Assembly: GCA_030696105.1 (NCBI GenBank)
Contig: JAUYNJ010000005.1
Location: forward strand, 77,678-141,677
Length of the DNA: 64,000 bases
DNA from: a bacterium
Lineage (GTDB): Bacteria; Patescibacteriota; Patescibacteriia; Patescibacteriales; UBA12465
Reading direction: 5' to 3'
In this document: positions 11,854 through 46,818 of the stretch, piece by piece
Layout of the letters: every line of letters begins with the position of its first letter
Numbering within the stretch: position 1 is the stretch's first letter
Program-made: the position numbers and the translations under genes
Notes under the pieces: generated by a model
Database searches by the model: none
What the model saw: only the letters and a program-made list of their open reading frames with translations
What the model was told of the DNA's origin: nothing

Positions 11854-12129
11854 TTATTGGATGACGCTAACTATTTTTGTAGATTTGAGGGTGCCATCAA
11901 ATTTCTTTAGTTTTTTGGTTGTAAATTTAACTTTTCCATTAGCCACTGCAAAGAGCGTGTCGTCGTTACCGCGACTCACATTCTTACCAGGATGGTACTT
12001 GGTTCCGCGTTGGCGGATGATGATGTTGCCGGCTTTCGCGTCTTGACCGTCCGAGAGCTTAACGCCTAGGCGCTTACTTTCTGAATCACGTCCTAACGAG
12101 GTTGAACCGGCGGCCTTCTTATGTGCCAT
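11854..12129 (-). CDS. rpmA: 50S ribosomal protein L27
   Basis: '[24 protein letters not shown]...[13 protein letters not shown]'. Confidence 0.95.
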
Positions 12130-13048: not shown

Positions 13049-15625
13049 ATGAGTTCTGATTGGCAAAATATCTTAGAATTTTTGCGTAGTGATTCCGGCG
13101 CTGGAATTGTTGCCCTCTTATTACTATTCGGCGCGATTGCCGCCATGGCAATAATAATTTTTGCTTTCCGTTTTTTTGTACGGCGCTTCGCCATGGATAA
13201 TTCGCATTTTGATCATCAGGTTTTTCTAATCCGTTTACCAAAAGAAAAGCCAAAGGATGAGAATAAAGACACGAGTCTGCAACAAATGCGTGAAGAGATT
13301 GCGGTGGGCGAAACAATATTTTCTAGTATTGGCGGTTTAAAAGCACAACGCGGTTGGATTCCTTGGTTGCTTGGTAGAAATGATCATTTTTCTTTCGAAA
13401 TAGTTGCTAGCAAAGGCAAGATTGCTTTCTATGCGGCAGCTCCGCGTCATCTTTCGCGTTATCTAGAGCAACAAATAACAGCTCATTATCCTGACACTGT
13501 TATTGAAGAGGTCGAAGATTATAATGCCTTCGGCATGAATGGTAAAATTGTCGCGGCGAATATCAGAACTAGAAAAAGCTTTGCCTTGCCCTTACGTACA
13601 TACCAAAAGATGGAAGTTGATCCCTTAAACTCTCTGATTAACATCATGTCGAAGCTCGATGGTGAAGAAAGTATTGCCGTTCAATACGTCGTGCGTAGTG
13701 CCCACGGGTATTGGCATCGTAAAGTGCGTCATATTGTTACGCGTATACAACGTAAGAATTCAGTACGCGATGGGATTCGTACTTCCAGTGTTTTGTGGCG
13801 AATTCTCAGTGTTTTTAGTCAGATTTTTGGATCGATATACGAGTCCGCTGTCAAAGATCAAACACCTGAGACAGTTAAGCGCTTATCGGCCGTTGAAGAG
13901 GAAATTTTAAAATCTATTGAAGAAAAGAATTTACGCGCTGGACTAGATGTAAATATTCGACTTATCGTTACAAGTTCATCGACCGAACGTTCAGCTGCTT
14001 ATTTGGAAAATGTGGCGAGCGTTTTTACTGAATTTAATAATTATAGTTACGGCAATTCTTTTTCTCGCGCGAATAAGTCGAATCAGGAAAGACAAATTAA
14101 TGATTTTATCCATCGTCGCTTTCGCGATGATTTATCATTTTTACTCAACACTGAAGAGTTGACAAGTGTTTTTCATTTGCCTTTAAAACACCTCGAAACG
14201 CCAAATATTATGTGGCTCACAGCTAAGAATGCGCCAGCTCCAGCTGATGTGCCCGCTGAAGGTTTGATGCTTGGTAAGAATGTTTATCGCGGCGTCGATA
14301 AGGATATTCGTATTAAGCGGCAAGACCGTCGTCGTCATACGTATATTATTGGTAAGTCAGGTGTTGGTAAGTCTGTGCTTTTAGCCAACATGGCTATTCA
14401 GGACATTCAAAACGGTGAAGGTGTTTGCGTTCTTGATCCTCATGGTGATTTAATTGAGGATATTCTGCAGCGTATTCCTCCGTCTAGAGCTGAAGATGTT
14501 GTTATTTTTTCACCGGCTGATATGGAGCGCCCACTCGCTTTAAACTTACTTGAGTACGATCCTCGTTATCCGGAGCAAAAAAGTTTTGTCATCAACGAGA
14601 TGATTGGTATTTTTGATAAGCTCTACGACTTAAAGCAGACCGGAGGCCCGATGTTTGAGCAGTATATGCGTAACGCTTTGCTTTTAATTATGGAAGATCC
14701 GGAGAGTGGTTCAACTTTAATGGAAATTCCTAAAGTTTTGTCCGATGAAAATTTCCGACGCTTAAAGCTTTCTCGTTGTAAAAATCGCACGGTTGTTGAT
14801 TTCTGGAAGAAAGAAGCAGAGAAGGCCGGCGGTGACGCTGCTCTTGCTAACATTGTGCCTTACATCACCTCAAAGTTAACCGCCTTCATTTCAAACGACA
14901 TGATGCGCCCAATTATTGGTCAGCAGAAGAGCTCCTTCAATTTCCGTGATTTAATGGATAGACAGAAAATTCTACTTATCGATTTACCAAAAGGTGTGGT
15001 TGGCGAGATGAACGCTTATCTTCTCGGTATGATTGTGGTTGGTAAAATTTTAATGGCCGCTTTGTCACGTACTGATATGCCCGCTGATCAGCGTAAAGAT
15101 TTTTATCTCTATATTGATGAATTTCAAAACTTTACCACTAACTCCATTTGTCAGATTTTATCAGAGGCTCGTAAATATGCCTTAAATTTGGTGATCGCTC
15201 ATCAATATATTGGACAGCTCGTTAAGTCGAATCAATCAAGCGGTTCATCGGAAATTAAAGATGCAGTATTTGGAAACGTCGGCACGATGATAACATTTAA
15301 GATTGGTACCGATGACGCCGAGTTCCTCGTTAAGGAGTTTTCGCCAGTATTTAATGTCTATGATTTATTAAATATTGATAAAGGCACGGCTTATATTAAA
15401 TTACTAGTGGACAATAGTCCGACGCGTCCATTTTCCATGAAAACAATTTGGCCTCTTATTGGCGTTCGTCAGGAAGGTATTTCGCACAAAATTCGTGCTC
15501 TTAGCCGTCTCAAATACGGACAGGATAGATCGGTCGTTGAAGCAGAAATTATCCGCCGCACCGAAACACCAACACCAGCCGCACCGAAGACCTCACCTTT
15601 TATTACCGAAAAACTTGCTGCGTAG
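13049..15625 (+). CDS. membrane-anchored TraD/VirD4/HerA-like P-loop ATPase (858 aa)
   Basis: N-terminal TM helix; Walker A 'IIGKSGVGKSV' followed by 'VLDPHGDL'; Walker B-like 'LYIDEFQNF'. This architecture matches T4SS coupling-protein/DUF87-like ATPases. Confidence 0.7.
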   Translation: MSSDWQNILEFLRSDSGAGIVALLLLFGAIAAMAIIIFAFRFFVRRFAMDNSHFDHQVFLIRLPKEKPKDENKDTSLQQMREEIAVGETIFSSIGGLKAQRGWIPWLLGRNDHFSFEIVASKGKIAFYAAAPRHLSRYLEQQITAHYPDTVIEEVEDYNAFGMNGKIVAANIRTRKSFALPLRTYQKMEVDPLNSLINIMSKLDGEESIAVQYVVRSAHGYWHRKVRHIVTRIQRKNSVRDGIRTSSVLWRILSVFSQIFGSIYESAVKDQTPETVKRLSAVEEEILKSIEEKNLRAGLDVNIRLIVTSSSTERSAAYLENVASVFTEFNNYSYGNSFSRANKSNQERQINDFIHRRFRDDLSFLLNTEELTSVFHLPLKHLETPNIMWLTAKNAPAPADVPAEGLMLGKNVYRGVDKDIRIKRQDRRRHTYIIGKSGVGKSVLLANMAIQDIQNGEGVCVLDPHGDLIEDILQRIPPSRAEDVVIFSPADMERPLALNLLEYDPRYPEQKSFVINEMIGIFDKLYDLKQTGGPMFEQYMRNALLLIMEDPESGSTLMEIPKVLSDENFRRLKLSRCKNRTVVDFWKKEAEKAGGDAALANIVPYITSKLTAFISNDMMRPIIGQQKSSFNFRDLMDRQKILLIDLPKGVVGEMNAYLLGMIVVGKILMAALSRTDMPADQRKDFYLYIDEFQNFTTNSICQILSEARKYALNLVIAHQYIGQLVKSNQSSGSSEIKDAVFGNVGTMITFKIGTDDAEFLVKEFSPVFNVYDLLNIDKGTAYIKLLVDNSPTRPFSMKTIWPLIGVRQEGISHKIRALSRLKYGQDRSVVEAEIIRRTETPTPAAPKTSPFITEKLAA

Positions 15626-22779: not shown

Positions 22780-23646
22780 ATGATGAAAGGGAAGTCTAGC
22801 CCATATTTGGCAAGAAGGGCAAAAACGAATAAACGTGTTAAAGTAGATTACCAGCGGAAAACGCTCAATAATCCTTTTTTTCGTCAGCGTCGAGAAAAAA
22901 AAGAAACATCGGGCCGTAGTCGAAAATTTTTTATACTTATAATTACGACTTTAATTTTAGCCTTCGCTGTTTACATTTTATTTTTTTCTTCGACATTTGC
23001 AATTCAAAAAATTCAAGTCAACGGCGTAAATCGCGTCGGCAACGAACAGCTAATCGCTTTAGCCTGGCAGCAGGCCGACCAAGGTCAGCATAATCTACTC
23101 TTATATAAAACTGAGGATTTATATAATTCATTGATGGAGAACTTCAGTTTTGACTCTTTGCGTGTTTATAAAAAATGGCCACATACGCTAGTGATAAGTG
23201 CTGGCGAGCGCGATCCAGCCTTTGTGTGGCGCTATAAGGGCGAGCAGCACTTCAGTGATAGTAATGGCTGCTTAATTCGCGAGACGGCTGTCGTGCCGGC
23301 AGACCTGTCTATGTATCCGGTTTTAGAAGCGGCTGACAACCAAGAACGTTTAAACGCAAGGGATTGTTTAACAATTGAGTCAGCATACCTACAGGCCATG
23401 TTTATATTGTCTGATAAGTTAAAAGCCTACCCAGAGCTTAAGGTGGATAGATTTTTACTCGAGGGCGAGGCTAACACCCTTAAGGCTGATTTAAACCTCG
23501 GGCCCAACATTTTATTTAACGTTAAAGAGGATGCCGACAAACAGCTTAATAAGCTTATTATTATCAAACAAGATAAGCCGGCGGCTGAGTTTAACAGCCT
23601 TGAGTATATAGATTTACGCTATGGTGACCGGGCCTACTTTAAATAA
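22780..23646 (+). CDS. FtsQ/DivIB-like cell division protein (POTRA domain)
   Basis: Basic N-terminus, one TM helix, then 'FAIQKIQVNGVNRVGNEQL' typical of the FtsQ POTRA start. Confidence 0.6.
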   Translation: MMKGKSSPYLARRAKTNKRVKVDYQRKTLNNPFFRQRREKKETSGRSRKFFILIITTLILAFAVYILFFSSTFAIQKIQVNGVNRVGNEQLIALAWQQADQGQHNLLLYKTEDLYNSLMENFSFDSLRVYKKWPHTLVISAGERDPAFVWRYKGEQHFSDSNGCLIRETAVVPADLSMYPVLEAADNQERLNARDCLTIESAYLQAMFILSDKLKAYPELKVDRFLLEGEANTLKADLNLGPNILFNVKEDADKQLNKLIIIKQDKPAAEFNSLEYIDLRYGDRAYFK

Positions 23647-23662
23647 TTAATACTACAAATAT

Positions 23663-23803
23663 ATGGAATCGATGTTCAAGTTTTTGTTTGGTTTAGCGGT
23701 ATTCATTTTTTCGCTGGTGAGCGTGGGTGTATTTTTACTAATCATCAAAATTGTTTTAATGTTTTCACCAGAAGTGAGACTGCTGGGGTTAATAATCTAC
23801 TAA
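23663..23803 (+). CDS. possible small hydrophobic peptide (46 aa)
   Basis: Hand translation gives MESMFKFLFGLAVFIFSLVSVGVFLLIIKIVLMFSPEVRLLGLIIY, a single TM helix. There is no other support. Confidence 0.3.
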   Translation: MESMFKFLFGLAVFIFSLVSVGVFLLIIKIVLMFSPEVRLLGLIIY

Positions 23804-23880
23804 GACGTCTTACAGGACTGAAATTTAAGACATATTCCGATATAATGTACCCGGGTGGGACCTAATTTGAATATAGCCTT

Positions 23881-23908
23881 ACGTGTATTAATATACATTA
23901 TGCGAAGT
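23881..23908. other. dif-like Xer recombination site candidate
   Basis: ACGTGTATTAA-TATACA-TTATGCGAAGT. The inner 14 nt TAATATACATTATG match E. coli dif TAATGTATATTATG at 12/14. The right arm resembles TTATGTTAAAT/TTATGTAAACT. Confidence 0.5.
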
Positions 23909-23982
23909 ATCGAACTATGAATAAATAAGGCAAATTGTCGCATTTAGCCCATATCATCTACTTCCCTCATATCAAAAAGAAT

Positions 23983-24226: not shown

Positions 24227-25180
24227 ATGACCCAGAAACCAATAATAAAATATTTAGGCGATTTTCTCGATTACTGTGAAATTGAGAAAGGTCTGTCTAG
24301 TAAAACTCAGGAAAATTATACTCGTTTTTTACGCAAGTTTTTTACGTGGTTAGAGCTGGATTCTAAGGCTGACCTAAAGCCACAGGACTTCACTACCGAT
24401 CACGTATGGCATTACAAGGTTCATCTATCTCGGCACGCAGACTCGCGGACAAATAAGACGCTAAAGAAAAGTACACAGAATTACTACCTCATCGCACTCC
24501 GCTCCTTGTTGGAATTTTTTGTCGAAAAAGACATTACTTCCCTGCCGCCATCAAAAGTGAAGCTGGCGAAGGACAAATCTGATAAAGAAATAAAATTTTT
24601 AAAGATAGAACAATTAAAAACTTTACTCGACACGCCTGATCGTTTTTCCATTATCGGTTTAAGAGATGCCGCTATTTTAGAGTCCTTGTTTTCTACCGGC
24701 TTACGCGTCGCTGAGCTGGCCGCCTTAAATCGTGAGCAAATTCGCTTCAAACAACCAATCGATGACCTAGAAATTGCGGTTGTCGGTAAGGGCGGCAAAA
24801 TTCGCACAGTCTACTTCTCTGCAAGAGCCGCTAAGGCCCTTAAAGCCTATTTAGACGAGCGCAAGGACTTCGATGAGGCCTTATTCATAAACTATCGCCG
24901 CGGGGCCTCTAAAAGAGACGTAACGCGTCGATTGACTGTAAAAAGTATCGAAGATATCGTAAAAAAATATGTAAAAATTGCGGGTTTGCCGGTAATGGCG
25001 ACCCCTCATACTCTGAGGCACTCATTTGCAACGGATTTATTGAATTCGGGCGTGGACCTAAGAACAGTGCAAGAGTTTCTCGGTCACAGCAATATTGCCA
25101 CTACTCAAATTTACACGCACGTCACAAATAAACAACTGCGTGATATTCATCGTCGCGTGCATGAGAATCGAAAATTATAA
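24227..25180 (+). CDS. tyrosine recombinase, XerC/XerD family
   Basis: SAM-like N-terminal domain. Catalytic residues in 'GLRVAEL', '[12 protein letters not shown]', '[15 protein letters not shown]'. Confidence 0.9.
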
Positions 25181-25227: not shown

Positions 25228-26475
25228 TTATGGTAAGTAATCAAGAGGATTAACCGGTATGCCATTTTTTCTGACTTCAAAGTGTAAATGGGCTCCAGTT
25301 GAGAATGGCCCTGAACCTGGCCTGCCAGGTGCGCCGCCAGTTGTGCCAATTAACTGACCCTTAACGACATACTGATCTTCTGCTACGCTAGCGCCGGAGA
25401 TATGACCATAAACGGTTGATAAGCCGTTATTGTGAACAATCATGATATAGGCGTAGGCGGTTGAGCCGTCAAATTTTACGCGCGCGACATATCCGTCAGC
25501 AGCCGCGTAGAGCGGACTTCCCTGCTTTGATCTTAAATCAATGGCTGAGTGCTCACCGATAATGCGGCGGAAGGGATAGTCTGGGTCGTGAAAAGTAGAA
25601 GTAATCACGCGACCAGTAATTGGCCAGGAAATAGTACTGTCACTTCCATCAAGACGATCTCGATTTAGCTGCGACATCTTGCTACGGACGGTATTTTCAA
25701 GGTTGGCGATATCAGCCGCTGCTTGCGCGGCCTGCTTTTTGGCTTGGGCAAGTAGGTCTTGATACGCTTTTTCCGAGGAGCGAGTTTCTTCTAAAAGGTA
25801 ATTCTTTTCGTTTTGCTCATATTGGAGTTGATCTTTTTTTTGCACCAGATCAGCCTTTAATTTAGCCAGTTCTTCGCTCTTCACTTTTATATCGGCCTGA
25901 GCTCGCTCAAGTCTATCTTTATCTGACTGCAGTTTGGCTAAGCTATTTTTCAGCTCCGTGTTGGCATTTTGTAGGTATCTCGACTGATTTAAAAACTCGG
26001 AGATAGAGCCGTTGAGCAAAAGGGCTTCAAGTGAGGAGACTTGGTCTTGTTTGTAAACAAGGCGTAGCAGTTTGGCGATATGGTCTTTCTGATCAGTTAG
26101 GCGCTGATTGAGATCAATGATGTCTAAGGTAATTTTTCTGGCCTCAAGATCAGTTTTGCTGATTTCCAAATTAGCACTCTCGAGTTCTAGCTGTGTTTTA
26201 GCGGCGCGGTTTTCAATTAGGCTGAGCTGTGAGGCGAGACTATTTTTTTCTACTTGCTTGGCGGCTATCGCCTGGCTATAAGCTTTTTGTCGTGCCGCCA
26301 GTGAGTCAATTTGCTGTTTCTGAGATTGAATCTCCGCGTTTAACTGCTGAATCTCGGCGTTAAGCATGTCGTCTTGGCCGCCGACAGCGAAGTCGATGTT
26401 GGAGATACAAAAAAACAGCGCGCTCAAAAATATTGCGCTGGTAAATACTTTCCCCCTGGTCGATAGATTTAACAT
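25228..26475 (-). CDS. M23 (LytM-domain) peptidase with long N-terminal coiled coil (EnvC-like)
   Basis: Signal/TM helix, about 250 aa of heptad-rich sequence, and C-terminal 'HSAIDL...GHISG...GAHLHFEV'. Confidence 0.85.
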   Translation of the reverse strand: MLNLSTRGKVFTSAIFLSALFFCISNIDFAVGGQDDMLNAEIQQLNAEIQSQKQQIDSLAARQKAYSQAIAAKQVEKNSLASQLSLIENRAAKTQLELESANLEISKTDLEARKITLDIIDLNQRLTDQKDHIAKLLRLVYKQDQVSSLEALLLNGSISEFLNQSRYLQNANTELKNSLAKLQSDKDRLERAQADIKVKSEELAKLKADLVQKKDQLQYEQNEKNYLLEETRSSEKAYQDLLAQAKKQAAQAAADIANLENTVRSKMSQLNRDRLDGSDSTISWPITGRVITSTFHDPDYPFRRIIGEHSAIDLRSKQGSPLYAAADGYVARVKFDGSTAYAYIMIVHNNGLSTVYGHISGASVAEDQYVVKGQLIGTTGGAPGRPGSGPFSTGAHLHFEVRKNGIPVNPLDYLP

Positions 26476-26511
26476 ATTAATAATATAACATCTTTTGCAA
26501 AATCTGTAAAA

Positions 26512-27470
26512 TTATTCAAATTCTTTATAAGCGGTTTCCGATATTGCCTTAATTGTCTCGCTCATGCCGATGAAATTATTTCCCCGCGTCATGATACAAA
26601 GCAGATAAGGCTTATCTATCTTGTATACAACACCACAGTCATGAAGCTGCCTCCCGTCTAGTAAGACGCGTTCACCAAACTTATGTGCGACCTCAATCTG
26701 CGGAGGGACGCCGGCGGTAAGGCCGAGGTTAAACTGTGATTTAGTCAAAATGCCTAAGGCTTTCTCTGGCATTGCATGATTTAGATACGAAGCATTATAT
26801 AATATTCGGAAAAATGAGGCGTAGTCGCGTACGCTCATAAAGTTTTCATTTTCATCTATATCCGGTACTTCTATGCCCAAATTTTGATAAACGCTATCCA
26901 GGCTAGAGGCTTCAATATGATTCAATAAAGCATTAGCGGCTTTATTGTCAGAGTACACAATCATGTATTCAATGAGGTCATTAATTTTATATGCCTTGCC
27001 GCTTTCAACTGTTCTTAGTGGTATTATATTTTGTGATAAAGTACTAGAATCGTCAGTAATATATATTTCTCATCTAAAACTGATGGAAAGGCCTCGGCAA
27101 TCTTTAGATAAGAAATCATTAATGGCACCTTAAGTAGGCTGGCGGGAGTAAATTCCTCGTCTTCGTTTATTCCAACCCAAGGTCCATTGTTCAAATCACG
27201 AAAGTAGACACTCGCATATGTAATCTTGCCATCTTTAATGTTTCGGTTAATGCTCTCTTTAATTTTCTTCTCTATTTCTTGCTCAGAAGTGCCATGAGCG
27301 TCGCTGCAGTCAAGTAAAGGGCTAATGTGTTTATATCCAGTTTCGTGTATTTCACTCGATAAATTTCTTGTGTCGGCGTGATTAGCTTCGTGGTAGTAAT
27401 TGGTTGTTAAGATGCCTATCAAAATACCAAAAATTGCTATTATCAGAAGGTGGGCGTACTTAAGGATCAT
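26512..27470 (-). pseudogene. class A beta-lactamase-like serine hydrolase, split by a frameshift
   Basis: The upstream ORF (27470-27024) carries a TM anchor and the SxxK motif ('ASLLK'). The downstream frame is open from about 27069 and carries 'YSDN' and 'HKFGE'. The frames differ by one nt near the tatatata tract at about 27058-27068. Confidence 0.7.
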
Positions 27471-27497
27471 GATGTTTGCAAACTTGATAAGAGATTT

Positions 27498-28691
27498 TTA
27501 TTTCATTTCTATTAATTTTTGAATGTAAATTTTACAGGCTTCACGACGACAAGTGTGAATGCTTTCGATTAGGCGACTTTCTGCAACCCAACGCCAAGCT
27601 TGATGGTCCCAGTGATTAATTTTAATTTCCTCGTCTTTGCCAAGAAACTCAGCGATAAGTAAGCTCTGTCTTTGTCCTTTATAGCCAAAATGTCGCTTAC
27701 TGTTAGGGTTAAAGTATTTGCCTAGCTCTTTGTTAAAGGAATATTTATATAAATTTTTATAAATAGCATTGACGCGCACATTGGTCACACCAGTCTCCTC
27801 TTCAAGTTCTTTTAGTCCGCTTGCTTCAATATCGAGCCCATCTAAACCACCCTGCGGCAACTGCCAGTGGCCAGTCTCTCCTTGTCTTTCTACAATCAAA
27901 ACCTCTCTCTCTGCACCGTTTTTACGAAACAAGATTATAGCGACATTGGGACGGTATAGGTTTGGCAAAATAAATATCCAATGTAAGACCTTAGTTGTAA
28001 ATACAGCGGTGGCCTGCCAAATTCTTCGCCAGCGTGAGGGCTGCTGAATTAAGCGCCAAAGCCATTCCAGCCCAAGCCTGCGCCAAGGGGTGGTGGCTCG
28101 CTTAATTTTGCCAGTAATAAAATCAAAGGCTCCGCCCAGGCCTGTTAAAAGGGATATTTTGTTTAGCGCTACACTTAGATGGTAAATATATTTCTCCTGG
28201 TAAGGTGAACCTAAAAGACAAATTGCCAGCGCTGGTTGGAATTTCCTAATTATCTCGATTTCCTCCCTGCTCGGTTTTTCAGTTTGATTACTATCTAATA
28301 CCTTCGCCTTTAAATGTGGGTATTTTTTTGTTATCGCCCTATAAATATCCTCTGCTGAGGATAAGCCATCCTGGCGGTTAATAATGACAATTTTACGTTG
28401 ATTACTCTCTGCCTCAGAAAGAAGATGCGGCAAGAGATCGGCACCAGTAACGCGGTGTAGCTGCTGCCCACTTAGTAAAGCGGCGATCTTTAAGCCAAAG
28501 CCGTCGGCAAGCGATAAATCGGCTTTGTTTAATATATAGAATAACTCTTCATCATTGATTGCTGTAAGGATTATTTCGGGGTTTGGCGTAACCAAGAGAT
28601 GAGACTGCTCATCATTATAAAAAGAGCTGATAGCGTCCGTCGCTTCAGACCAAGTTTTGTTGCCAGTATTAACACCGAGGATATTAGCCAT
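27498..28691 (-). CDS. fusion protein: WecG/TagA/CpsF-family glycosyltransferase plus C-terminal Nudix hydrolase
   Basis: N-terminal 'VTPNPEII...LSLADGFGL...GLEWLWRLIQQPSRWRR' (WecG/TagA). C-terminal Nudix box 'GGLDGLDIEASGLKELEEETGV'. Confidence 0.8.
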   Translation of the reverse strand: MANILGVNTGNKTWSEATDAISSFYNDEQSHLLVTPNPEIILTAINDEELFYILNKADLSLADGFGLKIAALLSGQQLHRVTGADLLPHLLSEAESNQRKIVIINRQDGLSSAEDIYRAITKKYPHLKAKVLDSNQTEKPSREEIEIIRKFQPALAICLLGSPYQEKYIYHLSVALNKISLLTGLGGAFDFITGKIKRATTPWRRLGLEWLWRLIQQPSRWRRIWQATAVFTTKVLHWIFILPNLYRPNVAIILFRKNGAEREVLIVERQGETGHWQLPQGGLDGLDIEASGLKELEEETGVTNVRVNAIYKNLYKYSFNKELGKYFNPNSKRHFGYKGQRQSLLIAEFLGKDEEIKINHWDHQAWRWVAESRLIESIHTCRREACKIYIQKLIEMK

Positions 28692-28728: not shown

Positions 28729-28800
28729 GAAGGTAGTTTGATACATCTATTTTATTACAAATTGGGCCTGACGTCAAAAATTGACTCGGCCAGCACTATT

Positions 28801-29766
28801 ATGCCCAACTACAAGAAACTAAGTGGTAAGATTGAAACTCTAACCATCGACAAGCCGGGAAATGACTACAATTTACGCTGGATAAATATCGTCGATGCCG
28901 GCCGCAAAGAGATAGATTATCTGCGCAAAAATTTCGGCTTCAACATTGACCACTTAAAGGCATCAGTTGCTAATGCTTTTTCGCAGAGACCGATGGTCGT
29001 AGAAGAAGATGGTTATCTTTTCCTGATTCTACACTTCCCTACTTTTTTTAAAGGAAAAGTTATTGCCGGTGAAATTGAATTTTTTATCAGTCATGGTTAT
29101 CTCGTTGTTTTGCATAATGACAACATCCCAGTTCTTGTCGATTTTTTTGAAAAAGCAAAGAAGGATCAGAACGGTTTACTTTCTTATGCCACTGAATCTT
29201 CGGCTACCCTTCTTTATGAAATTCTCGACCGCTTGTTGCAATCTTGCTATACGCTAATTGATAACAACAGTCTTGAAATTGAAGTTGTTGAGAATTTAAT
29301 CTTTGATAAGAATCAAAAAGAAGCAGTTGAAAAGATTTTGAATTTAAGAAGAAATATCATCAACATCCGCAAGATCATGCAGAATCACAAAAGTATCTTG
29401 CAAAAACTATTGCAGATGAAAAGTTCATTGGTACCAGCCGAAGAAATGAAGTTGCAGTACGGGCGCCTCATTGAACACTCAAAGAGAATTTGGGAAATGC
29501 TCGATAATCAGAAAGAAATGGTTGATGTCTTAAACGACACGAATGAGTCGCTCTTAAATGATCGCATGAATAACATCATGAAGACCTTAACCCTGTTTTC
29601 GGTCATCGTCTTCCCACTCACCCTGATGGCGGGCATCTTCGGGATGAACGCTAAATACATGCCCTTGATTGATAATCGGTACGGTTTTTGGATGATTCTA
29701 TTTATTATGGCCATTGGCTCCTGGGTGATGCTCGGCTACTTTAAAAAGAAAAAGTGGCTTGATTAG
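28801..29766 (+). CDS. corA: CorA-family magnesium/cobalt transporter
   Basis: C-terminal 'GIFGMNAKYMP' (GMN motif) flanked by two TM helices. The ATG at 28801 is preferred over the TTG at 28738. Confidence 0.9.
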   Translation: MPNYKKLSGKIETLTIDKPGNDYNLRWINIVDAGRKEIDYLRKNFGFNIDHLKASVANAFSQRPMVVEEDGYLFLILHFPTFFKGKVIAGEIEFFISHGYLVVLHNDNIPVLVDFFEKAKKDQNGLLSYATESSATLLYEILDRLLQSCYTLIDNNSLEIEVVENLIFDKNQKEAVEKILNLRRNIINIRKIMQNHKSILQKLLQMKSSLVPAEEMKLQYGRLIEHSKRIWEMLDNQKEMVDVLNDTNESLLNDRMNNIMKTLTLFSVIVFPLTLMAGIFGMNAKYMPLIDNRYGFWMILFIMAIGSWVMLGYFKKKKWLD

Positions 29767-29791
29767 TTTAAAATTAGGTAAAAAATATGAG

Positions 29792-29820
29792 AAGACGCTC
29801 TTTCTAGGGGCGTCTTTTTT
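29792..29820 (+). terminator. intrinsic terminator after corA
   Basis: aagacgc-N11-gcgtctt followed by ttttt. Confidence 0.75.
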
Positions 29821-29834
29821 ATGTCCTATTTTCC

Positions 29835-29863
29835 TTGACACATTTTAATAAATTTGCTATAGT
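29835..29863 (+). promoter_or_regulatory. promoter P1 upstream of the GT4 gene
   Basis: TTGACA-N17-TATAGT. Confidence 0.55.
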
Positions 29864-29876
29864 ATCAGGTTACAAA

Positions 29877-29905
29877 TTGACAATAACGCTATAAATTGAT
29901 ATACT
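29877..29905 (+). promoter_or_regulatory. promoter P2 upstream of the GT4 gene (very short leader)
   Basis: TTGACA-N17-TATACT. The ATG lies 12 nt after the -10 box. Confidence 0.55.
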
Positions 29906-29916
29906 AATTACCCAAT

Positions 29917-31023
29917 ATGAAAATAGCCTTCATCGGCCAAAAAGGAATACCAGCACAAACCGGCGGCGTTGAAAAACAGGTCGAAGAATTATTAGTGCAT
30001 CTAGCTAAACGTGGACACGAAGTCTATGCTTACGCTCGTCGTGGCTACGCCTCTGATTTAAAAGAATATAAGGGAGTTAATATTATCTCTTTGCCGTTTA
30101 TTAAGGGCAAGAACTTTGAAGCAATTAGTCATACCTTTCTAGCCGTGCTAGACATTTGGTTAAAAAAAGTAGATATTATTCATTTTCAGTCTATTGGGCC
30201 GGCTTCTTTGCTTTGGCTAGTGAAGCTTCTTAAGCCACGCACGCCAGTTGTTTTTACATTTCACTGCCAAGACTACTATCACAAGAAATGGGGTCGTCTG
30301 GCGCGCTGGTACCTCCGCTTAGGGGAAAGTGTCGGTTGCCGCTACGCGGATCAAACTTTTGTGACATCACAAGAATTAACAACTTATGCCGCGGCCCGTT
30401 ATGACCGTCAAGCGCAGTATATGCCTTCAGGCATTAATCCCCCTAACTTACCAGAAGTCCGCGATATTCGTCGTTGGGGCTTAGAAAAAGGTTCGTATAT
30501 CTTTTCAGCTTCGCGTTTAGTTCGTCATAAAGGTGTTCATTATTTAATTGAGGCTTTTAAGACTTTAAAGACTGATAAACAGCTTGTTATTGCTGGTGAT
30601 AGTGCTTACACCGATGACTATGTGCAAGAATTACATGCGCTAGCGGCTGGTGATAAACGCATTATTTTTGTCGGTAATCAGAATGGCTCACTGCTTAATG
30701 AGTTGTATGCAAACGCCTACCTCTTTGTACAGCCATCAGAATATGAAGGCCTTTCAATGGGTTTACTTGAGGCAATGTCATTTGCTCTTCCCTGCTTAGC
30801 GAGTGATATCCCGGCAAATATCGAGGCTCTGGGCGGACAAGGCTTAACATTCAAAAATAAAGATGTGGCTGATTTCAATAATAAATTACAGTATGCCTTG
30901 GATAATCCGGAGATAATGGCAGCGCAGGGTCAAGCCTTAGCGGCACGTACCAAGCAAGAATACAACTGGGAAAAAATTGTTGATCAAACTTTAGCGGTAT
31001 ATCAAAAATTACTGAATAAATAA
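29917..31023 (+). CDS. GT4-family glycosyltransferase
   Basis: 'MKIAFIGQKGIPAQTGGVEKQVEEL' and a C-terminal 'EYEGLSMGLLEAMSF' (E-x7-E region). Confidence 0.85.
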   Translation: MKIAFIGQKGIPAQTGGVEKQVEELLVHLAKRGHEVYAYARRGYASDLKEYKGVNIISLPFIKGKNFEAISHTFLAVLDIWLKKVDIIHFQSIGPASLLWLVKLLKPRTPVVFTFHCQDYYHKKWGRLARWYLRLGESVGCRYADQTFVTSQELTTYAAARYDRQAQYMPSGINPPNLPEVRDIRRWGLEKGSYIFSASRLVRHKGVHYLIEAFKTLKTDKQLVIAGDSAYTDDYVQELHALAAGDKRIIFVGNQNGSLLNELYANAYLFVQPSEYEGLSMGLLEAMSFALPCLASDIPANIEALGGQGLTFKNKDVADFNNKLQYALDNPEIMAAQGQALAARTKQEYNWEKIVDQTLAVYQKLLNK

Positions 31024-31125
31024 AATAGATTTTGTCTTTTCTCTGCCCCTTCATTTATGAGGAGGTAGAACAAAGGACGAAACGGTTCGTACTTTAAAAC
31101 TGAATGTCTAACCCAAAAACAATAC

Positions 31126-32301
31126 ATGATGAAAAAACTAACCATGATTTTGATGCTGCTGGCTGTATTTACAACAGCTTGCCAGAAGGATTATGACTTG
31201 GAGCCAACGCAAAAGCCAAGCGCTAAACCAGAACTGAAGGTCTCAGGCGCCAGCATGACAGCCGACACGGCGCAGACTCTGCCAAACACATACATAGTAT
31301 ATGTATGGTCGGGATTGCCACTTTCAGCGAGTTCCTACGCCTACACCTGGGACCTCGGAAACGGCACAAGCTCGACGCTGCCCAATCCGCAGGTTAAGTA
31401 CTCTGTCGGACTTTATCACGTAACGTCCACAGCGACCCCAATCGCGGGCGGGACGGCGTATACAGACGATATCTGGGTCAGAGCCGGTACCATTGTGCTC
31501 GGCGATGCGGCTAACATCCTTATTAGTGCATATGCATCGGGTAACTCCTGGGTTTATGAGCTCGGCATGAATACGAGCTATATTGCCAATTATGCATTTA
31601 TGTCCGGCAACACGCGTTTTGTTAGCGGGAGTTTTACTTCGTGGGATCCACAACCGGCGAATACAGTTCAAGTTATAAACGGTATCGAGTATATGAAGTA
31701 CACGGTGACTGTTCCCAATTCAGATGCCCTAAACAAAAGATTCTGGGGTTATGGTCGTGAATCAACCTGGGCTTGGGCGCCAAATGATCAATTGTGGATT
31801 TCTACAGATGATGGAGGCTATTTTGGTGCTTACTTTTATTATGGCCAAATACTTCCATACATCGGCGAAGTATCAGGCATCCCCGGTGATATCGGGGATC
31901 TGCAAGTTGCAGATACTGTTCCGACAGTTAGGATGGAAATCTTGTACGGATCTTCGGATCCCGACTCACTGCGCGTGTTTATAAACCATGTGGCCTATGC
32001 AAATGGGCCACAACCGTTTATTTCGCGAAAGACTTCCATCAACACTTGGGAGAATGAACCTCTTATTATGTCGAGCGATTATCTTGGTTGGAGTTACTTC
32101 ACCTATGCAATAGGTGAAGTAACCGATCTACTGCAGTTCAAGTTTGGGCCTCACTTATTGAGTACCAACTTGTTCGGGGTAATGAATAACAGTATGTATT
32201 ACTCGGAGGTGGAGGGCCTATTAGCTGTCCAAATATTAGGGATTGAAAATCGTAAATATTTTTCAATCAAAGCTGCCTCCCTGTCCCAACAAATTAACTA
32301 A
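31126..32301 (+). CDS. lipoprotein with PKD-like domain
   Basis: Lipobox 'VFTTAC'. 'YTWDLGNGTSSTLPNPQVKYSVGLYHVTSTA' resembles the PKD signature. Confidence 0.6.
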   Translation: MMKKLTMILMLLAVFTTACQKDYDLEPTQKPSAKPELKVSGASMTADTAQTLPNTYIVYVWSGLPLSASSYAYTWDLGNGTSSTLPNPQVKYSVGLYHVTSTATPIAGGTAYTDDIWVRAGTIVLGDAANILISAYASGNSWVYELGMNTSYIANYAFMSGNTRFVSGSFTSWDPQPANTVQVINGIEYMKYTVTVPNSDALNKRFWGYGRESTWAWAPNDQLWISTDDGGYFGAYFYYGQILPYIGEVSGIPGDIGDLQVADTVPTVRMEILYGSSDPDSLRVFINHVAYANGPQPFISRKTSINTWENEPLIMSSDYLGWSYFTYAIGEVTDLLQFKFGPHLLSTNLFGVMNNSMYYSEVEGLLAVQILGIENRKYFSIKAASLSQQIN

Positions 32302-32453: not shown

Positions 32454-33335
32454 TTACTTGGGCTCGTAGTTGATTGGGAAATCGAAGTATTCGTAGCCTT
32501 CGTGTTTATTTGGCCTTACTTTGTATGGAAGTAAAGCCTTCGCTAAACTCGGGTCATTGTAGGCGTGGGGGTAATATGGATTGATTTTCTCCTTATACAA
32601 TTCATGAGGTAACCAGATTCCATATCCGTTGTCATGTCCGCCGGCGTACCAAGCGAAGCTGAACGTCATTTGATTTAATAGCATATTAACGTCCACAATG
32701 ATGTTGGATGTCGCAATGTAATATCCGTTGTATTCATAGACATTACGGAATTCATTGTTGACATTGGGGTTAGGTGAGCTCAGGCCAGGAATACCGTCCA
32801 AGATTTTTTTATTGATACAGTATATAAGCATACTGTTGTCATCAAAGGTGACGCAGACATCGCCTGACATCACGCCTTTATATCTTGAGATTGCCAAGTT
32901 TGCACCAGTAACGTTGCTGGATGTTGCTGAATGAGCCGGCACGCTTTCTCTCGTCTCAGTTTTTGAACTCGAGGTAGGCGCGCTTTTTTTTGTGCTGCGC
33001 GTCGTAGTGCGGGTCGTTGTCGCGGCTTTTTTAGGGCCGATACCGAGGCAGGCGTCAAGTTCTGCTCTTAAACGAGCATTATCCTGCAGTAAGGCAATTA
33101 ACTCTTCACCGGTGATGGCAAGACCAACCACTGAACCGGTTGGGTATTGCTCATCGCATTCATCAGTAACGATGGTGGTGTCCGCAACAGTCGAATGACT
33201 GTTGTCGCTTTCTTCGGAATTTCTACCAAACCACCAGAAGGCAAATAATCCTGCCAGCAATATTAAGGCGCCAATAATGTAAGGCGTTTTGTTGCCTGAT
33301 GGTCTGTCGGGTGATGGATTTGCGTTCGTGTTCAT
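32454..33335 (-). CDS. hypothetical membrane-anchored protein with Thr/Ser/Lys-rich linker
   Basis: TM helix 'YIIGALILLAGLFAFWWF', linker 'KKAATTTRTTTRSTKKSAPTSSSK', aromatic-rich C-terminal domain. No family recognised. Confidence 0.5.
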   Translation of the reverse strand: MNTNANPSPDRPSGNKTPYIIGALILLAGLFAFWWFGRNSEESDNSHSTVADTTIVTDECDEQYPTGSVVGLAITGEELIALLQDNARLRAELDACLGIGPKKAATTTRTTTRSTKKSAPTSSSKTETRESVPAHSATSSNVTGANLAISRYKGVMSGDVCVTFDDNSMLIYCINKKILDGIPGLSSPNPNVNNEFRNVYEYNGYYIATSNIIVDVNMLLNQMTFSFAWYAGGHDNGYGIWLPHELYKEKINPYYPHAYNDPSLAKALLPYKVRPNKHEGYEYFDFPINYEPK

Positions 33336-33367
33336 GTTCCTCGTTTTTTTGGTTTAAATTGTTATTG

Positions 33368-34228
33368 TTAATTGCTTTTCCTGAACAGATTTACCAAATC
33401 CAGATGGATTTGGAAACTATCTATTCTGGGTCCTTTTGCCCAGAACATGGGCTGATAGGACATGGACAGTATTTCGTGTCCATATTGACCTTTTGCCAGG
33501 GTAATCCCGATACCGACACTATAGAAACTTGCTTTATTGCCCGTTTCGTAAGTGTAGGCTGCAATTATCGACGGCATTAGGTAAGTAATATGGCTCCAGC
33601 CCAGGTAAATAGGGACGATGCCGTTTTCAGCCTGAACTTTAAAACGCTCACGGTTCCAAGGAACACCGATAAGTGTATCGGCATTCCAATTCGCCGTTTG
33701 CGTGCTGTTTAAGGCCGTTTGCATTTCGATCATAATCTTCTGTTGCGCAAAGGGCGCTTGGAGTATTATGTTTCGAAACAACATTCCTCCATCGAGATAA
33801 AGCATTTTATCTTTCTGCTTATTCTGGTAGAGGTCTGCTCCTTGGTACATTTTGCCTGTACTGTTTACCACTTTGTAGGCAGTGTTTAACCAAGCATACC
33901 TATCCGACATATTGCCGGGGGTGAGTGTAAAATTAACAGCTACACCAATACCGAATTCGGTAGAGTGGTGTAAGTAACCGTTAATCATACTTTTCACCTC
34001 TATTCCTGATAGATACAACCCGAAGCGGGTCGTTTCCATCTGGTTTGAGAGTGGGAGCCAGCGTATCTGTGCGTAGCGCCAGGTGCCGTCACCACCTTTG
34101 TCGGAAGGAGCGTAATAGCCGTTGCCGACTAAGACTTGCCCTTCGCCAAGTGGGTGTTGGGCCTCAACCTCGATGCCGAGAAAAATTGTCAGCAGAGGAA
34201 TCAATAACAAAAAAATTGTTTTTTTCAT
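33368..34228 (-). CDS. secreted beta-strand-rich protein (possible beta-barrel)
   Basis: Start taken at 'MKKTIFLLLIPLLTIFLGIEVEAQ' (signal peptide). Alternating hydrophobic patterns (FGIGVAVNFTL, FYSVGIGITLA). Confidence 0.5.
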   Translation of the reverse strand: MKKTIFLLLIPLLTIFLGIEVEAQHPLGEGQVLVGNGYYAPSDKGGDGTWRYAQIRWLPLSNQMETTRFGLYLSGIEVKSMINGYLHHSTEFGIGVAVNFTLTPGNMSDRYAWLNTAYKVVNSTGKMYQGADLYQNKQKDKMLYLDGGMLFRNIILQAPFAQQKIMIEMQTALNSTQTANWNADTLIGVPWNRERFKVQAENGIVPIYLGWSHITYLMPSIIAAYTYETGNKASFYSVGIGITLAKGQYGHEILSMSYQPMFWAKGPRIDSFQIHLDLVNLFRKSN

Positions 34229-34329
34229 TTTTATCGTGTTTGGTGTATTTAGTTTTGAATTAACGTGGAAGTAAAACTTTACATCCTTTTTACGCCCCTT
34301 ATTGAAAGGGGCGACAAAAAGATACAAAC

Positions 34330-35136
34330 TTATCTCAAAATATTATGGATATTTCCCGTGGGCTGCCATTTTGGTGTGGGGGCGTAATTATTATTATTGT
34401 CATCCACAGTTGGCAAATTCATCGGGGCACTTGGCGGACGCTGCACGTATGGATTCTGAGGCTCCTCTTCCCTTTCCAAGGGTTGATAAGTGACGCGGTC
34501 CGGACGACGTTTCGGCTTGTGCGCTTTTCTCGCTTCTGGGAAAAAATATATCCAGAAAGATGCGGCGGCTACTCCTAAGAATATTGCAGCAAAAAAGTTC
34601 AAAATAATATTTGGTTTAACTGGAAAACTTGATGTAAGGGGTTGATCAATAACAGCAATGCTTACTTGATCGCCACCACGTTGGTAGTTAAAGCTCTTGC
34701 TCATGAGGGTTTGGTTGACGGCAAGCGCAATCTGCTGTGCTTGATAGGTGTCAGCATGATAGATGTAGATTTCTAAGATGCCCGTGTCGCCTACGTTACG
34801 TGCCTCTATCGTTTTCTTCCAGGTCTTCATCCTTTGCTTATAGGTATCGCCGAAATAATCGGTATCAATATTAAAGCCAGCATCGGTTGCTAAATTGAAA
34901 AACGATGAAGAGTAGACAACCTGAGAGAATAAGTTGCTTAAATACTGATTCGACTTGGAAACAGTATAGGGGTCGGCTCCACTCAAATTTTGAGATATTA
35001 AAAGTCTTGAGCGTACCGAGTATTTTAAGGGCTGGATAAAAGTGAGCCCAAAGACAAGTATAAAGCAACCTAGCACAATGCTGGCCACTAAGCCCTGTCT
35101 TTTTTTAATTGAATTGAAAAACGTATTTAGTTCCAT
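34330..35136 (-). CDS. Wzz/chain-length-determinant-like protein with Pro-rich tail
   Basis: N-terminal TM helix followed by 'PLKYSVRSRLLI', a second TM helix 'ILNFFAAIFLGVAAASFWIYFF', and a basic/Pro-rich C-terminus. Confidence 0.7.
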   Translation of the reverse strand: MELNTFFNSIKKRQGLVASIVLGCFILVFGLTFIQPLKYSVRSRLLISQNLSGADPYTVSKSNQYLSNLFSQVVYSSSFFNLATDAGFNIDTDYFGDTYKQRMKTWKKTIEARNVGDTGILEIYIYHADTYQAQQIALAVNQTLMSKSFNYQRGGDQVSIAVIDQPLTSSFPVKPNIILNFFAAIFLGVAAASFWIYFFPEARKAHKPKRRPDRVTYQPLEREEEPQNPYVQRPPSAPMNLPTVDDNNNNYAPTPKWQPTGNIHNILR

Positions 35137-35469: not shown

Positions 35470-36759
35470 ATGAAAAAAATTATCATGATCGCTGGCGTAT
35501 TCCTGCTACTCTTACTTGCTTGGAGCGCGCAGGATGGTAGAACTAAGGAGCAGCCGGTTTACTCAGGTGATGCTGTGTATTATAAAAATAGAGTGGTAAT
35601 AGCCGCCGCCGCTTCAGGTCAACTAGATTTTTATACTTTAGCTGATGAGCGCGTAGATCATTTGTTCTCCGTAAGCCTTGCCAGTAACCCATCAAAGACA
35701 GAAGTATTTAATGATGTGAAGCTTGATATTAGCGGCGATAAATTAATGGCCTATGCCGTTGCGGGTTATACTGTTTATCAGTATGACATTTCAAATCTAT
35801 ATTCGGCTGAGTTAAAAAAGTCGGTTAAGAATACATACTGGGAATGGTATGATCGCATTGATCGCTTCGGTGGCAGTATGGGCACCGTTAGTAAGCGCGG
35901 CATAACAATTTTAAATAGTAATCTTGATGTTATTGATCGTCACGATTTTGAGAGTGACTTTGCTTACAGTGTACGAAGTGGTGGCAGCACTCGTTTCATT
36001 AGCAGTATGAATGAGTCTTCAATTTCCATTTATGACCGTGAGACAAGAGCCCTGCTTACAACCACGCCTTTAAATTTTACTAATTATAAAAAGAACGGAC
36101 GTAAACCACACTATGACAGAGTGACTAACGATACTTTTGTTATTGATGATTACTATGTTAAAAAAATTGATATCAATGGTGTATTAACTGCATCTTATCG
36201 CCATGGTTTTGATTCTTCTTATGATGTGGAGAGCACAGTCGACAACCAATATATTTACGCGTCGAATGGTTTGAAGGTTATGAAATTGAAAAAAAGTGAT
36301 TTAAGCTTAGCTGGAGAAACTTTAACAACTACAATGGGTGCGGCTCAAGGTTGGGCTATGGGATTAAAACTGGTTAATACAGCCTTCGGTGACCGTTTAG
36401 TCGTATTTAATGGTACGAGTATTTTAGTGCTTGATTCAAATCTAAAGCTTTTAGCTCATGCCGGTCATGTTTCAAAAGAAGATAATAAAATAACTCCGAG
36501 AGAGAATCTTTATCTTGTTCTAGACCATCACAGTGCTATTACCGGCGCCAGTGTGAATTTACAGGGCGGCGGCTTCTGGCCAAATGAAGATCTTCAGGTT
36601 AAGCTTGTAAATAGCTCAGTCAGCGTTAAGGCTGATCGCTTTGGGCGGTTTAATACAAATGTGCCAGTTCCGGTTACACCGGCTGGGCGCTATGATATTA
36701 AAGTAGATGGTCAAGCGTCAAATCTTACATACAGTATTTCCTTCGCCATAGTTGAATAA
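35470..36759 (+). CDS. hypothetical secreted protein (429 aa, beta-rich, Ig-like C-terminus)
   Basis: Signal peptide 'MKKIIMIAGVFLLLLLAWSA', its own promoter, and a hairpin after the stop (agagccgcttggctct + T-run). Confidence 0.55.
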   Translation: MKKIIMIAGVFLLLLLAWSAQDGRTKEQPVYSGDAVYYKNRVVIAAAASGQLDFYTLADERVDHLFSVSLASNPSKTEVFNDVKLDISGDKLMAYAVAGYTVYQYDISNLYSAELKKSVKNTYWEWYDRIDRFGGSMGTVSKRGITILNSNLDVIDRHDFESDFAYSVRSGGSTRFISSMNESSISIYDRETRALLTTTPLNFTNYKKNGRKPHYDRVTNDTFVIDDYYVKKIDINGVLTASYRHGFDSSYDVESTVDNQYIYASNGLKVMKLKKSDLSLAGETLTTTMGAAQGWAMGLKLVNTAFGDRLVVFNGTSILVLDSNLKLLAHAGHVSKEDNKITPRENLYLVLDHHSAITGASVNLQGGGFWPNEDLQVKLVNSSVSVKADRFGRFNTNVPVPVTPAGRYDIKVDGQASNLTYSISFAIVE

Positions 36760-46651: not shown

Positions 46652-46702
46652 AATATTTTTATAAGCGTTTTTTAAGCGCTTGGTTTATAAGTACATTTAA
46701 AT

Positions 46703-46728
46703 AAAAAAATCTGTGGGACGACCACAGA
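46703..46728 (-). promoter_or_regulatory. terminator-like hairpin in the rplJ leader (candidate L10-leader attenuator)
   Basis: Minus strand reads tctgtgg-tcgtc-ccacaga followed by ttttttt, about 52 nt upstream of the rplJ ATG and downstream of the promoter. Confidence 0.5.
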
Positions 46729-46818
46729 GCATAAAATAAGCTAGTATTAGCTTCATTTACCTCGGCAAGACTTATCTTTATGCTTGCTGTCTATGGTAAT
46801 CTATTGATTTATGTTTAT

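Follow-up and report, generated by a model that had tools for sequence, protein, structure and literature searches.

Does a short, imperfect palindrome in front of the xer gene of a Candidatus Falkowbacteria genome (assembly GCA_030696105.1, contig JAUYNJ010000005.1) serve as the dif site of that chromosome, and which recombinase would act on it? The whole stretch of DNA analysed, 64 kb in length, is termed the window. An initial annotation, made from its letters alone, had proposed a dif-like 28-mer of 11-6-11 layout at 23881–23908; that sequence is present exactly there on the plus strand, and the dif-like reading is supported independently by its conservation, by a switch in the polarity of a G-rich word, by prophage junctions and by copies on phage genomes. 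We put the probability that the 28-mer is the dif site of the Falkowbacteria chromosome at about 0.88. The host belongs to Candidatus Falkowbacteria, within Patescibacteria (the candidate phyla radiation, CPR), and near homologues of its Xer protein (76–85% identical) carry the labels Patescibacteria or Candidatus Falkowbacteria. The predicted site and its presumed enzyme are arranged as follows.

23881–23908, plus strand: predicted dif site, 28 bp, 11-6-11, ACGTGTATTAATATACATTATGCGAAGT = ACGTGTATTAA-TATACA-TTATGCGAAGT (sequence read directly)
23881–23891, plus strand: left arm ACGTGTATTAA, the variable arm, its outer seven positions dependent on species and its inner TTAA kept
23892–23897, plus strand: central region TATACA, the putative place of strand exchange
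23898–23908, plus strand: right arm TTATGCGAAGT, the invariant arm
24227–25180, plus strand: xer, a tyrosine recombinase of 317 amino acids and the presumed enzyme for the site, with Pfam Phage_integrase and SAM-like N-terminal domains

The 28-mer lies in a non-coding gap of 423 bp (initially given as 420 bp), bounded by a small open reading frame (ORF; 23663–23803) and by xer. Carnoy and Roten (2009, PMC2731167) recognize dif sites by a non-coding location and low G+C, by an 11-6-11 imperfect palindrome resembling characterized sites, by presence in related strains or species, by closeness to the terminus and by a single copy per chromosome. The G+C content of the 28-mer is 9/28 (32%) against ~42% across the window, and its palindrome (inner TTAA/TTATG) agrees with characterized dif sites at 15–22 of 28 positions. 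It occurs once in the window even when up to three mismatches are allowed, where shuffled sequences predict none, and once per 20-kb locus in the genomes examined, prophage attL derivatives excepted. Compared over its whole length with the dif site of E. coli K12 (GGTGCGCATAATGTATATTATGTTAAAT; PMC2731167), it matches 15/28 positions forward and 19/28 in reverse. The 12/14 agreement claimed initially for the inner 14 nt was recovered on recomputation with that published sequence, and the claimed likeness of the right arm to the E. coli XerD arm amounts to 8/11 positions (8–9/11 for the XerD arms of published dif sites). Beta-proteobacterial sites come closer still, with 22/28 in one orientation (Thiobacillus dif) and 25/28 for the variant found in one relative, L052; read as its mirror image, ACTTCGCATAA, the right arm is identical at 11/11 positions to the XerC arm of Thiobacillus and Methylobacillus dif. 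As a yardstick, Cortez et al. (PMC2958812) accepted archaeal dif sites that have 14–18/28 positions in common with the bacterial consensus. The loose core WTAA-N6-TTATG occurs four times in the window against 2.9 expected; the motif match alone is therefore not significant, and support comes from conservation and context. Within the gap, Rfam at gathering thresholds and ARAGORN detected no structured RNA or tRNA, no terminator was found, short repeats stand at chance level and there is one promoter-like match (23818–23846), a number not above that in shuffles.

Conservation was assessed in one genome per species, giving 80 loci with xer orthologues at 67–93% identity, most of them labelled Falkowbacteria or Patescibacteria. 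Alignment of the regions upstream of orthologous xer genes had been suggested at the outset as a check, and it bears the proposal out: in 74 of the 80 loci the 28-mer precedes xer on the same strand (best match 22–28/28), and it is to these 74 genomes that the counts below refer. Five of the remaining six have less than 140 bp upstream of xer, and the sixth (L032) has 758 bp and no site. Information reaches ~2 bits per position over the 28 bp and a symmetric AT on either side, with flanks at ~0.1 bit. The right arm TTATGCGAAGT is identical in 72/74, the centre is TATACA or TCTACA in most, and the left arm keeps TTAA and varies in its outer seven positions. Deeper-branching lineages have the left arm ACTTCGCTTAA, a mirror image of the right arm but for one position (10/11), and L069 alters both arms symmetrically (ACTTTG... 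paired with ...CAAAGT). A TATAAT-like hexamer frequently abuts the left edge of the 28-mer.

The distance from site to xer start ranges from 37 to 1107 bp among genomes; in the window the interval is 318 bp, with three copies of the polar word described below and no ORF. Twelve loci (L001–L004, L009, L011, L012, L019, L020, L037, L053 and L057) have unrelated ORFs of 122–267 amino acids between site and xer, on the minus strand except in L020. Most genomes with gaps of 600–1107 bp have such ORFs, and L010 and L036 have long gaps without. Insertions thus seem to favour the neighbourhood of dif, an apparent hot spot.

Metagenome contigs were scanned for TTAA-NNTANA-TTATGCGAAGT, yielding at least 120 matches, the first 120 of which were classified. 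Among these 120 matches listed, the 28-mer is linked to xer in 85, with xer directly downstream in 78 and an ftsQ-site-xer synteny with an inverted site in seven (xer 50–58% identical). A further 13 have ftsQ upstream on a contig that ends before xer, 18 have neither gene, three were too short to classify and one lies by another recombinase. Several of the 18 have left arms unlike dif, for example CTTTTTTTTAA; we treated such matches as chance hits to an 18-base AT-rich pattern and discarded them as dif sites. Presence in related species, as Carnoy and Roten require, extends to 74 species genomes and ~98 metagenome contigs.

Is the site at the replication terminus? We sought words whose strand bias does not follow the genes, which identified RGGGAAG (extended consensus ~RRCAGGGAAG), distributed in the window as two arrays.

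399–22794, all on the plus strand: left-replichore array of 17 RGGGAAG pointing towards the site, with copies inside minus-strand genes (1847, 3189)
23961–61929, all on the minus strand: right-replichore array of 15 RGGGAAG pointing towards the site, including copies inside plus-strand genes

The partition between 22794 and 23961 has zero exceptions in 64 kb (17 plus, 15 minus). Right-array copies within plus-strand genes lie at 24537 (in xer), 29034, 30787 and 61923; those at 23961, 24128 and 24139 fall between site and xer. The AGGGAAG form occurs 17 times against 5.8 expected, five times on the plus strand up to 22794 and 12 times on the minus strand from 23961. Across the 74 genomes, AGGGAAG points towards and away from the site 148:4 on the left, and away and towards 5:209 on the right; the corresponding ratios are 65:2 and 1:100 for CAGGGAAG and 42:2 and 1:53 for GGGNAGGG, the E. 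coli FtsK-orienting polar sequence (KOPS). Broken down by gene class, AGGGAAG counts are 140:4 in left plus-strand genes, 2:89 in right minus-strand genes and 0:26 in right plus-strand genes, the last of which shows the polarity switch to be independent of gene orientation; coding-biased words (GAAGAA, ATGAAA) still follow the gene strand in those same right plus-strand genes. Across genomes the strand change falls in the interval from −242 to +42 bp relative to the site, where word density is highest, so that the site is bracketed to within ~300 bp; in the window the bracket is 1.2 kb wide. As a control, phage contigs have no AGGGAAG polarity.

Read on the G-rich strand, the words on either side point to the site, which makes it a terminus and not an origin. 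Convergence of this kind is the defining behaviour of KOPS around dif, and RGGGAAG has each of the expected attributes: it is G-rich, polar regardless of transcription, convergent on the predicted dif and denser nearby. The seven metagenome contigs with an inverted site (L118, L122, L129, L132, L144, L161 and L207) show the word converging as well (1:0 on the left, 0:8 on the right), hence site orientation is not tied to replichore polarity.

GC skew gives a coarser picture. The raw cumulative curve of the window rises to ~24 kb, runs flat to ~37 kb and then falls. Over the 74 genomes, raw skew drops from ~+0.1 to slightly negative exactly at the site, a step confounded with gene orientation. 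After correction for orientation by regression, whole-gene skew amounts to +0.047 left of the site and −0.015 right of it, with a bootstrap interval for the difference of 0.049–0.074 that excludes 0; in the window, corrected skew crosses zero at ~36–48 kb. The skew maximum and this crossing sit 13–20 kb to the right of the polar-word switch, an offset that is unexplained. Skew places the terminus within ~10–20 kb of the site, and closeness to the terminus in the sense of PMC2731167 is seen in the polar-word inversion, the skew maximum 13 kb off and the sign change of corrected skew. The skew extremum had been expected near the site at the outset: the polar-word switch at 22794–23961 does bracket the site, but the maximum is ~13 kb away and the coincidence is not exact. 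The strand layout invoked at the same time, with all genes from 3758 to 25180 on the plus strand except rpmA and a minus-strand block from 25228 to 28691, is as described; plus-strand genes nevertheless resume at 28738–32301, leaving the convergence a local one. The exceptional gene is

11854–12129, minus strand: rpmA, the sole minus-strand gene between 3758 and 25180

Does the site recombine? In two genomes of the species scan, L008 and L052, the small ORF that usually precedes the site by ~50–100 bp is 5 kb away, displaced by a block of minus-strand genes.

L008, 4803–9879: prophage, ~5-kb block of minus-strand genes between small ORF and site, with a Zot-family ATPase
L008, 4803–4830: attL, AGGTGTATTAA-TATACA-CTTTTAAACAC
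L008, 9852–9879: attR, ACTTCGCTTAA-TATACA-TTATGCGAAGT
L052, 4076–9434: prophage, ~5-kb block of minus-strand genes, with a Zot-family ATPase and an ORF2/G2P rolling-circle Rep
L052, 4076–4103: attL, ACGTGGATTAA-TATACA-TTTTCAAACCC
L052, 9407–9434: attR, ACTTCGCATAA-TATACA-TTATGCGAAGT

Zot and Rep are hallmark genes of filamentous phages, and the two Zot proteins are just 44% identical, marking these as two different elements. No tyrosine recombinase was detected in either block by tblastn with Xer or by Pfam on the main ORFs. Each attL consists of the host left arm, TATACA and a foreign arm, and each attR of a foreign left arm, TATACA and the host right arm. The attL left arms match those of the nearest prophage-free relatives, and the empty site of L022 equals the attL left flank joined to the attR right flank. 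As attL and attR share only TTAATATACA, the predicted crossover lies within it. Natural recombinant junctions of two elements with no detected integrase are therefore found inside the site. Integrative mobile elements exploiting Xer (IMEX) are integrated at dif, have dif-like junctions and carry no recombinase of their own. The two prophages look like such elements, and their junctions are what Xer would be expected to leave on integrating an IMEX of the TLC or gonococcal genetic island (GGI) type, with one good arm, an identical centre and a degenerate second arm.

The inovirus attP deduced from these junctions keeps the centre, with a good arm to its left and a degenerate one to its right. 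Its predicted sequence, ACTTCGCNTAATATACANTTTNAAAC, has no exact match in IMG/VR, and four small viral contigs with related Zot proteins contain no recognizable site and no end sequence in common with the prophages. A doubly weak attL combined with a symmetric attR should render integration difficult to undo and still leave a good dif in place. L008 has an additional perfect half site, ACTTCGCATAA, at 9797–9807, followed by TGTCGA and lacking a second arm, 55 bp upstream of attR, possibly a scar or a piece of the phage attachment region.

The pattern also recurs on nine IMG/VR contigs; in seven the left arm is dif-like, a feature not called for by the search. In five tailed-phage contigs, four of them distinct (L081, L082, L084 and L089) with L085 in addition, the 28-mer lies 130–630 bp from terL; L096 and L085 are nearly identical.

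L081, 1796–1823: 28-mer
L085, 1156–1183: 28-mer
L096, 610–637: 28-mer
L082, 2792–2819: 28-mer
L084, 10844–10871: 28-mer
L089, 9754–9781: 28-mer

Terminase calls for L081, L085 and L089 were confirmed by PHROGs, and those of terL in L082 and L084 are based on a 24–25% tblastn match. In L081 and L085 the site falls between terS and terL, and these two contigs carry an identical 28-mer in opposite orientation, their proteins being just ~53% identical. Integration and multimer resolution are candidate roles for the 28-mer on tailed phages. A mechanism built on a centre inverted between tailed phage and host was considered and dropped, there being host lineages with matching centres. A further phage contig, L083, encodes a recombinase 27% identical to Xer near a copy of the site.

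Which enzyme would use the site? The initial claim that xer is the only Xer-type recombinase gene of the window is upheld, no other tyrosine recombinase being present there; tblastn with Xer likewise found no second one within 10 kb on either side in the 80 genomes. The protein scores below the curated cutoffs of every model tried: NCBIfam XerC (TIGR02224, 225.8 against 335.15), XerD (TIGR02225, 219.9 against 329.6), XerS (118.8 against 267) and archaeal XerA (NF040815, 202.5 against 220), the last being the closest miss. Its closest solved relatives are E. coli XerD and Pyrococcus abyssi XerA, roughly equal, and the XerH structure 5jjv is distant at just 50 bits. Given these scores and the distance to XerH, Xer is a member of the family that cannot be filed as XerC, XerD, XerA, XerS or XerH. 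Blocks GLRVAEL, GKGGKIR and HTLRHSF and a fourth of 13 residues align with the catalytic blocks of E. coli XerD (1a0p) and are conserved. Within them lie the catalytic residues R-K-H-R-H/W-Y, and by this alignment the enzyme appears catalytically intact.

Xer from the adjacent gene presumably binds and cuts the site. Xer monomers would occupy both 11-bp arms, the invariant right arm probably with high affinity and the degenerate left arm probably through cooperative binding, as happens in XerH/difH and XerS/difSL. On a dimeric chromosome the two copies of the site would meet at the division septum, with RGGGAAG most likely steering an FtsK-type translocase towards them, and two pairs of strand exchanges, located at the borders of TATACA, would turn the dimer into monomers. 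We infer both the dependence on FtsK and the order of strand exchange. Phages would exploit the site because it recombines.

Several observations weigh against this account. The raw GC-skew maximum at ~36–37 kb is displaced rightwards from the site by ~13 kb; for published dif sites the median distance from the skew maximum is 7.3 kb, and that of E. coli is 39.1 kb away, on chromosomes several-fold larger (PMC2731167), such that the offset is within the range of known sites, yet is a larger fraction of a ~1-Mb chromosome. Skew at third codon positions shows no significant change at the site across the 74 genomes; with this, and with the raw step confounded, the polar word was used as the main test for the terminus. 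The 74-genome counts are themselves of non-independent events, synteny and some word positions being inherited. No FtsK was found among the 40 window proteins (Pfam), and no FtsK-type GxTGSGKS Walker motif in the loci examined; ftsK is annotated in the CPR bacterium TM7x, a member of a different class. In the alignment to 1a0p, the XerD stretch RQLHQQ (whose last Q follows the crystal sequence, which ends at residue 290) reads RDIHRR in Xer. It is through these RQ-QQ residues that the C terminus of XerD contacts FtsK-gamma (review PMC5357621).

Might the 28-mer be merely cis-regulatory, an operator or promoter for xer and no recombination site? It always stands upstream of xer, the TATAAT-like hexamer is often at its left edge and the promoter-like match at 23818–23846 is close by. 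Variable spacing and the minus-strand genes inserted in the gap of some genomes argue against a promoter or operator role, as do sites inverted relative to xer in the related clade, copies on phage genomes without xer, the convergence of the polar word and prophage junctions that record past recombination. We regard a purely regulatory function as exceedingly improbable; a secondary, autoregulatory one may exist. That xer is instead the integrase of a mobile element, with the 28-mer as its attachment site and not a housekeeping dif, is very improbable. Tyrosine recombinases beside their own sites are typical of integrative elements, and the L083 phage recombinase has a copy of the site nearby, but here the same housekeeping synteny (ftsQ-like gene, small ORF, site, xer and M23 peptidase) is maintained in more than 150 genomes or contigs at 50–93% protein identity, no second site copy or element boundary lies within 10 kb, and the site coincides with the replichore polarity switch.

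An alternative that leaves the dif site in place concerns its enzyme: a classical XerC plus XerD pair might serve it, the neighbouring gene encoding one member and the partner lying elsewhere in the genome. An invariant right and a variable left arm form the pattern reported for the XerD and XerC arms of Proteobacteria, the arm logic of the inovirus attP resembles that of TLC-phi and GGI-type elements (good XerC side, degenerate XerD side), and the XerC and XerD models fit the protein equally well. Set against this, the arms of deeper lineages (ACTTCGCTTAA/TTATGCGAAGT, 10/11 mirrors) leave two paralogues little to distinguish, no second tyrosine recombinase occurs within 10 kb in 80 genomes or in the window, both curated cutoffs are missed with that of the single archaeal XerA the nearest, and linkage of site and gene has been called a possible hallmark of single-recombinase systems (PMC5357621). 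A pair is hence possible, though we judge it unlikely. Symmetric arms in deeper lineages, the near miss on XerA, the lack of a nearby paralogue and the gene–site linkage suggest a single recombinase, and it is reasonably likely that Xer acts alone on the predicted dif. Were this so, it would be a further bacterial single-recombinase type beside XerS, XerH and XerL.

How does the system compare with those already known? As in classical XerCD/dif of Proteobacteria and Firmicutes, the site is 28 bp in 11-6-11 form (19/28 to E. coli, 22/28 to Thiobacillus) with one arm better kept; it is intergenic, AT-rich, at the terminus and used by filamentous phages, and G-rich polar words, GGGNAGGG itself included, converge on it. 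It differs in being linked to its recombinase gene, E. coli xerC and xerD being far from dif, in the failed XerC and XerD cutoffs and absent RQ-QQ, in the near-symmetric arms of deeper lineages and in having no second recombinase in the 10-kb flanks or the window. Archaeal XerA/dif (Cortez et al. 2010, PMC2958812) also pairs one XerC/D-like recombinase with a 28-bp 11-6-11 site, whose inverted arms are nearly perfect; XerA is the model whose cutoff the Falkowbacteria protein approaches most closely (203 against 220), and the match of that protein to P. abyssi XerA about equals that to E. coli XerD. Unlike here, Thermococcales dif is not beside xerA (PMC2958812), and Archaea lack FtsK and have 4-nt archaeal short polarized sequences (ASPS) in place of KOPS-like 7–8-mers; nor is the XerA cutoff reached.

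Gene and site adjoin in XerS/difSL of streptococci and lactococci and in XerH/difH of Campylobacterota, single terminus modules that are asymmetric with a preferred arm, and the mention of this linkage in the initial annotation agrees with the review (PMC5357621). The resemblance stops at the sites and proteins: difSL has 31 bp with an 11-bp centre against 28 bp with a 6-bp centre here (XerS score 119 against 267), and difH is of an unrelated TGAAAA...TTTTCA type (XerH structure, 50 bits). In the single-recombinase XerL/dif system of Legionellales (PMC9765430) the site was revealed by a mobile element with a dif mimic, and the prophage junctions described here follow a like logic; XerL has been tested genetically, whereas the Falkowbacteria system, from a different phylum, is known from sequence alone. 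The prophages resemble the IMEX phages CTX-phi, VGJ-phi and TLC-phi in being ~5-kb Zot/Rep elements with no integrase detected, inserted precisely at dif, and in a deduced attP made of one arm and the centre of dif with a degenerate second arm. They differ from the Vibrio phages in having a CPR host and in being known here as integrated copies, and their symmetric attR and doubly weak attL suggest one-way integration by a logic undocumented for those phages. We found no account of Xer/dif, KOPS or IMEX for Patescibacteria in the literature searched, and GRiD does no more than BLAST bins against listed dif sites. The predicted Falkowbacteria dif would be a new example of a well-known system and an expected extension of known biology.

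The CPR, or Patescibacteria, is huge and mostly uncultured, and its chromosome biology is inferred almost wholly from sequence. Site, recombinase and polar word together would give a precise terminus marker for checking and orienting metagenome-assembled genomes and for coverage-based growth rates; RGGGAAG could itself help to orient and check Falkowbacteria assemblies. With 28 bp and one gene, the module is compact enough to be tested in E. coli and may yield a marker-excision tool. The prophage junctions suggest that CPR bacteria are lysogenized by filamentous phages that borrow the host Xer, and the 28-mer on tailed-phage genomes offers a sequence handle for linking phages to CPR hosts. A fuller picture, whose odds we regard as about even, would be that Falkowbacteria and probably related Patescibacteria use one XerA/XerCD-like recombinase to resolve chromosome dimers, with a linked classical dif and a KOPS-like RGGGAAG as its guide, that this dif is the entry point of the first IMEX-type phages of the CPR, that inovirus integration is one-way and leaves a symmetric active dif and a dead attL, and that tailed phages carry the site between terS and terL.

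Two conserved genes stand immediately to the left of the site, the order ftsQ, small ORF, site and xer being found in most loci.

22780–23646, plus strand: FtsQ-like gene, the conserved left neighbour, with weak POTRA_1 and PRK05529 matches
23663–23803, plus strand: small ORF of 46 amino acids, hydrophobic, MESMFKFLFGLAVFIFSLVSVGVFLLIIKIVLMFSPEVRLLGLIIY, directly after the FtsQ-like gene and the last gene before the site

The small ORF recurs in tblastn at 49–78% identity and the same position in ~60 loci, and was the landmark that exposed the prophage insertions. It is likely to be a real small membrane protein, and annotation may miss it.

Elsewhere in the window, an ATPase of 858 amino acids (13049–15625, plus strand) has N-terminal hydrophobic segments and a weak TrwB/VirD4 P-loop match; considered as a candidate FtsK, it was rejected as TrwB/VirD4-like (a type IV coupling protein). 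Six proteins of 268–748 amino acids have no Pfam family at E ≤ 1e-5 (3758–5482, 31126–32301, 32454–35136, 35470–36759, 43376–45622 and 54719–56683). There are no tRNA genes in the 64 kb, and the sole Rfam match is an L10 leader at 46695–46814 on the minus strand. Finally, a Beta-lactamase2-family gene at 26512–27470 (minus strand) is split in two, 27024–27470 covering profile positions 1–49 and 26512–26964 positions 82–214, probably a frameshift or a pseudogene, or else an assembly error.

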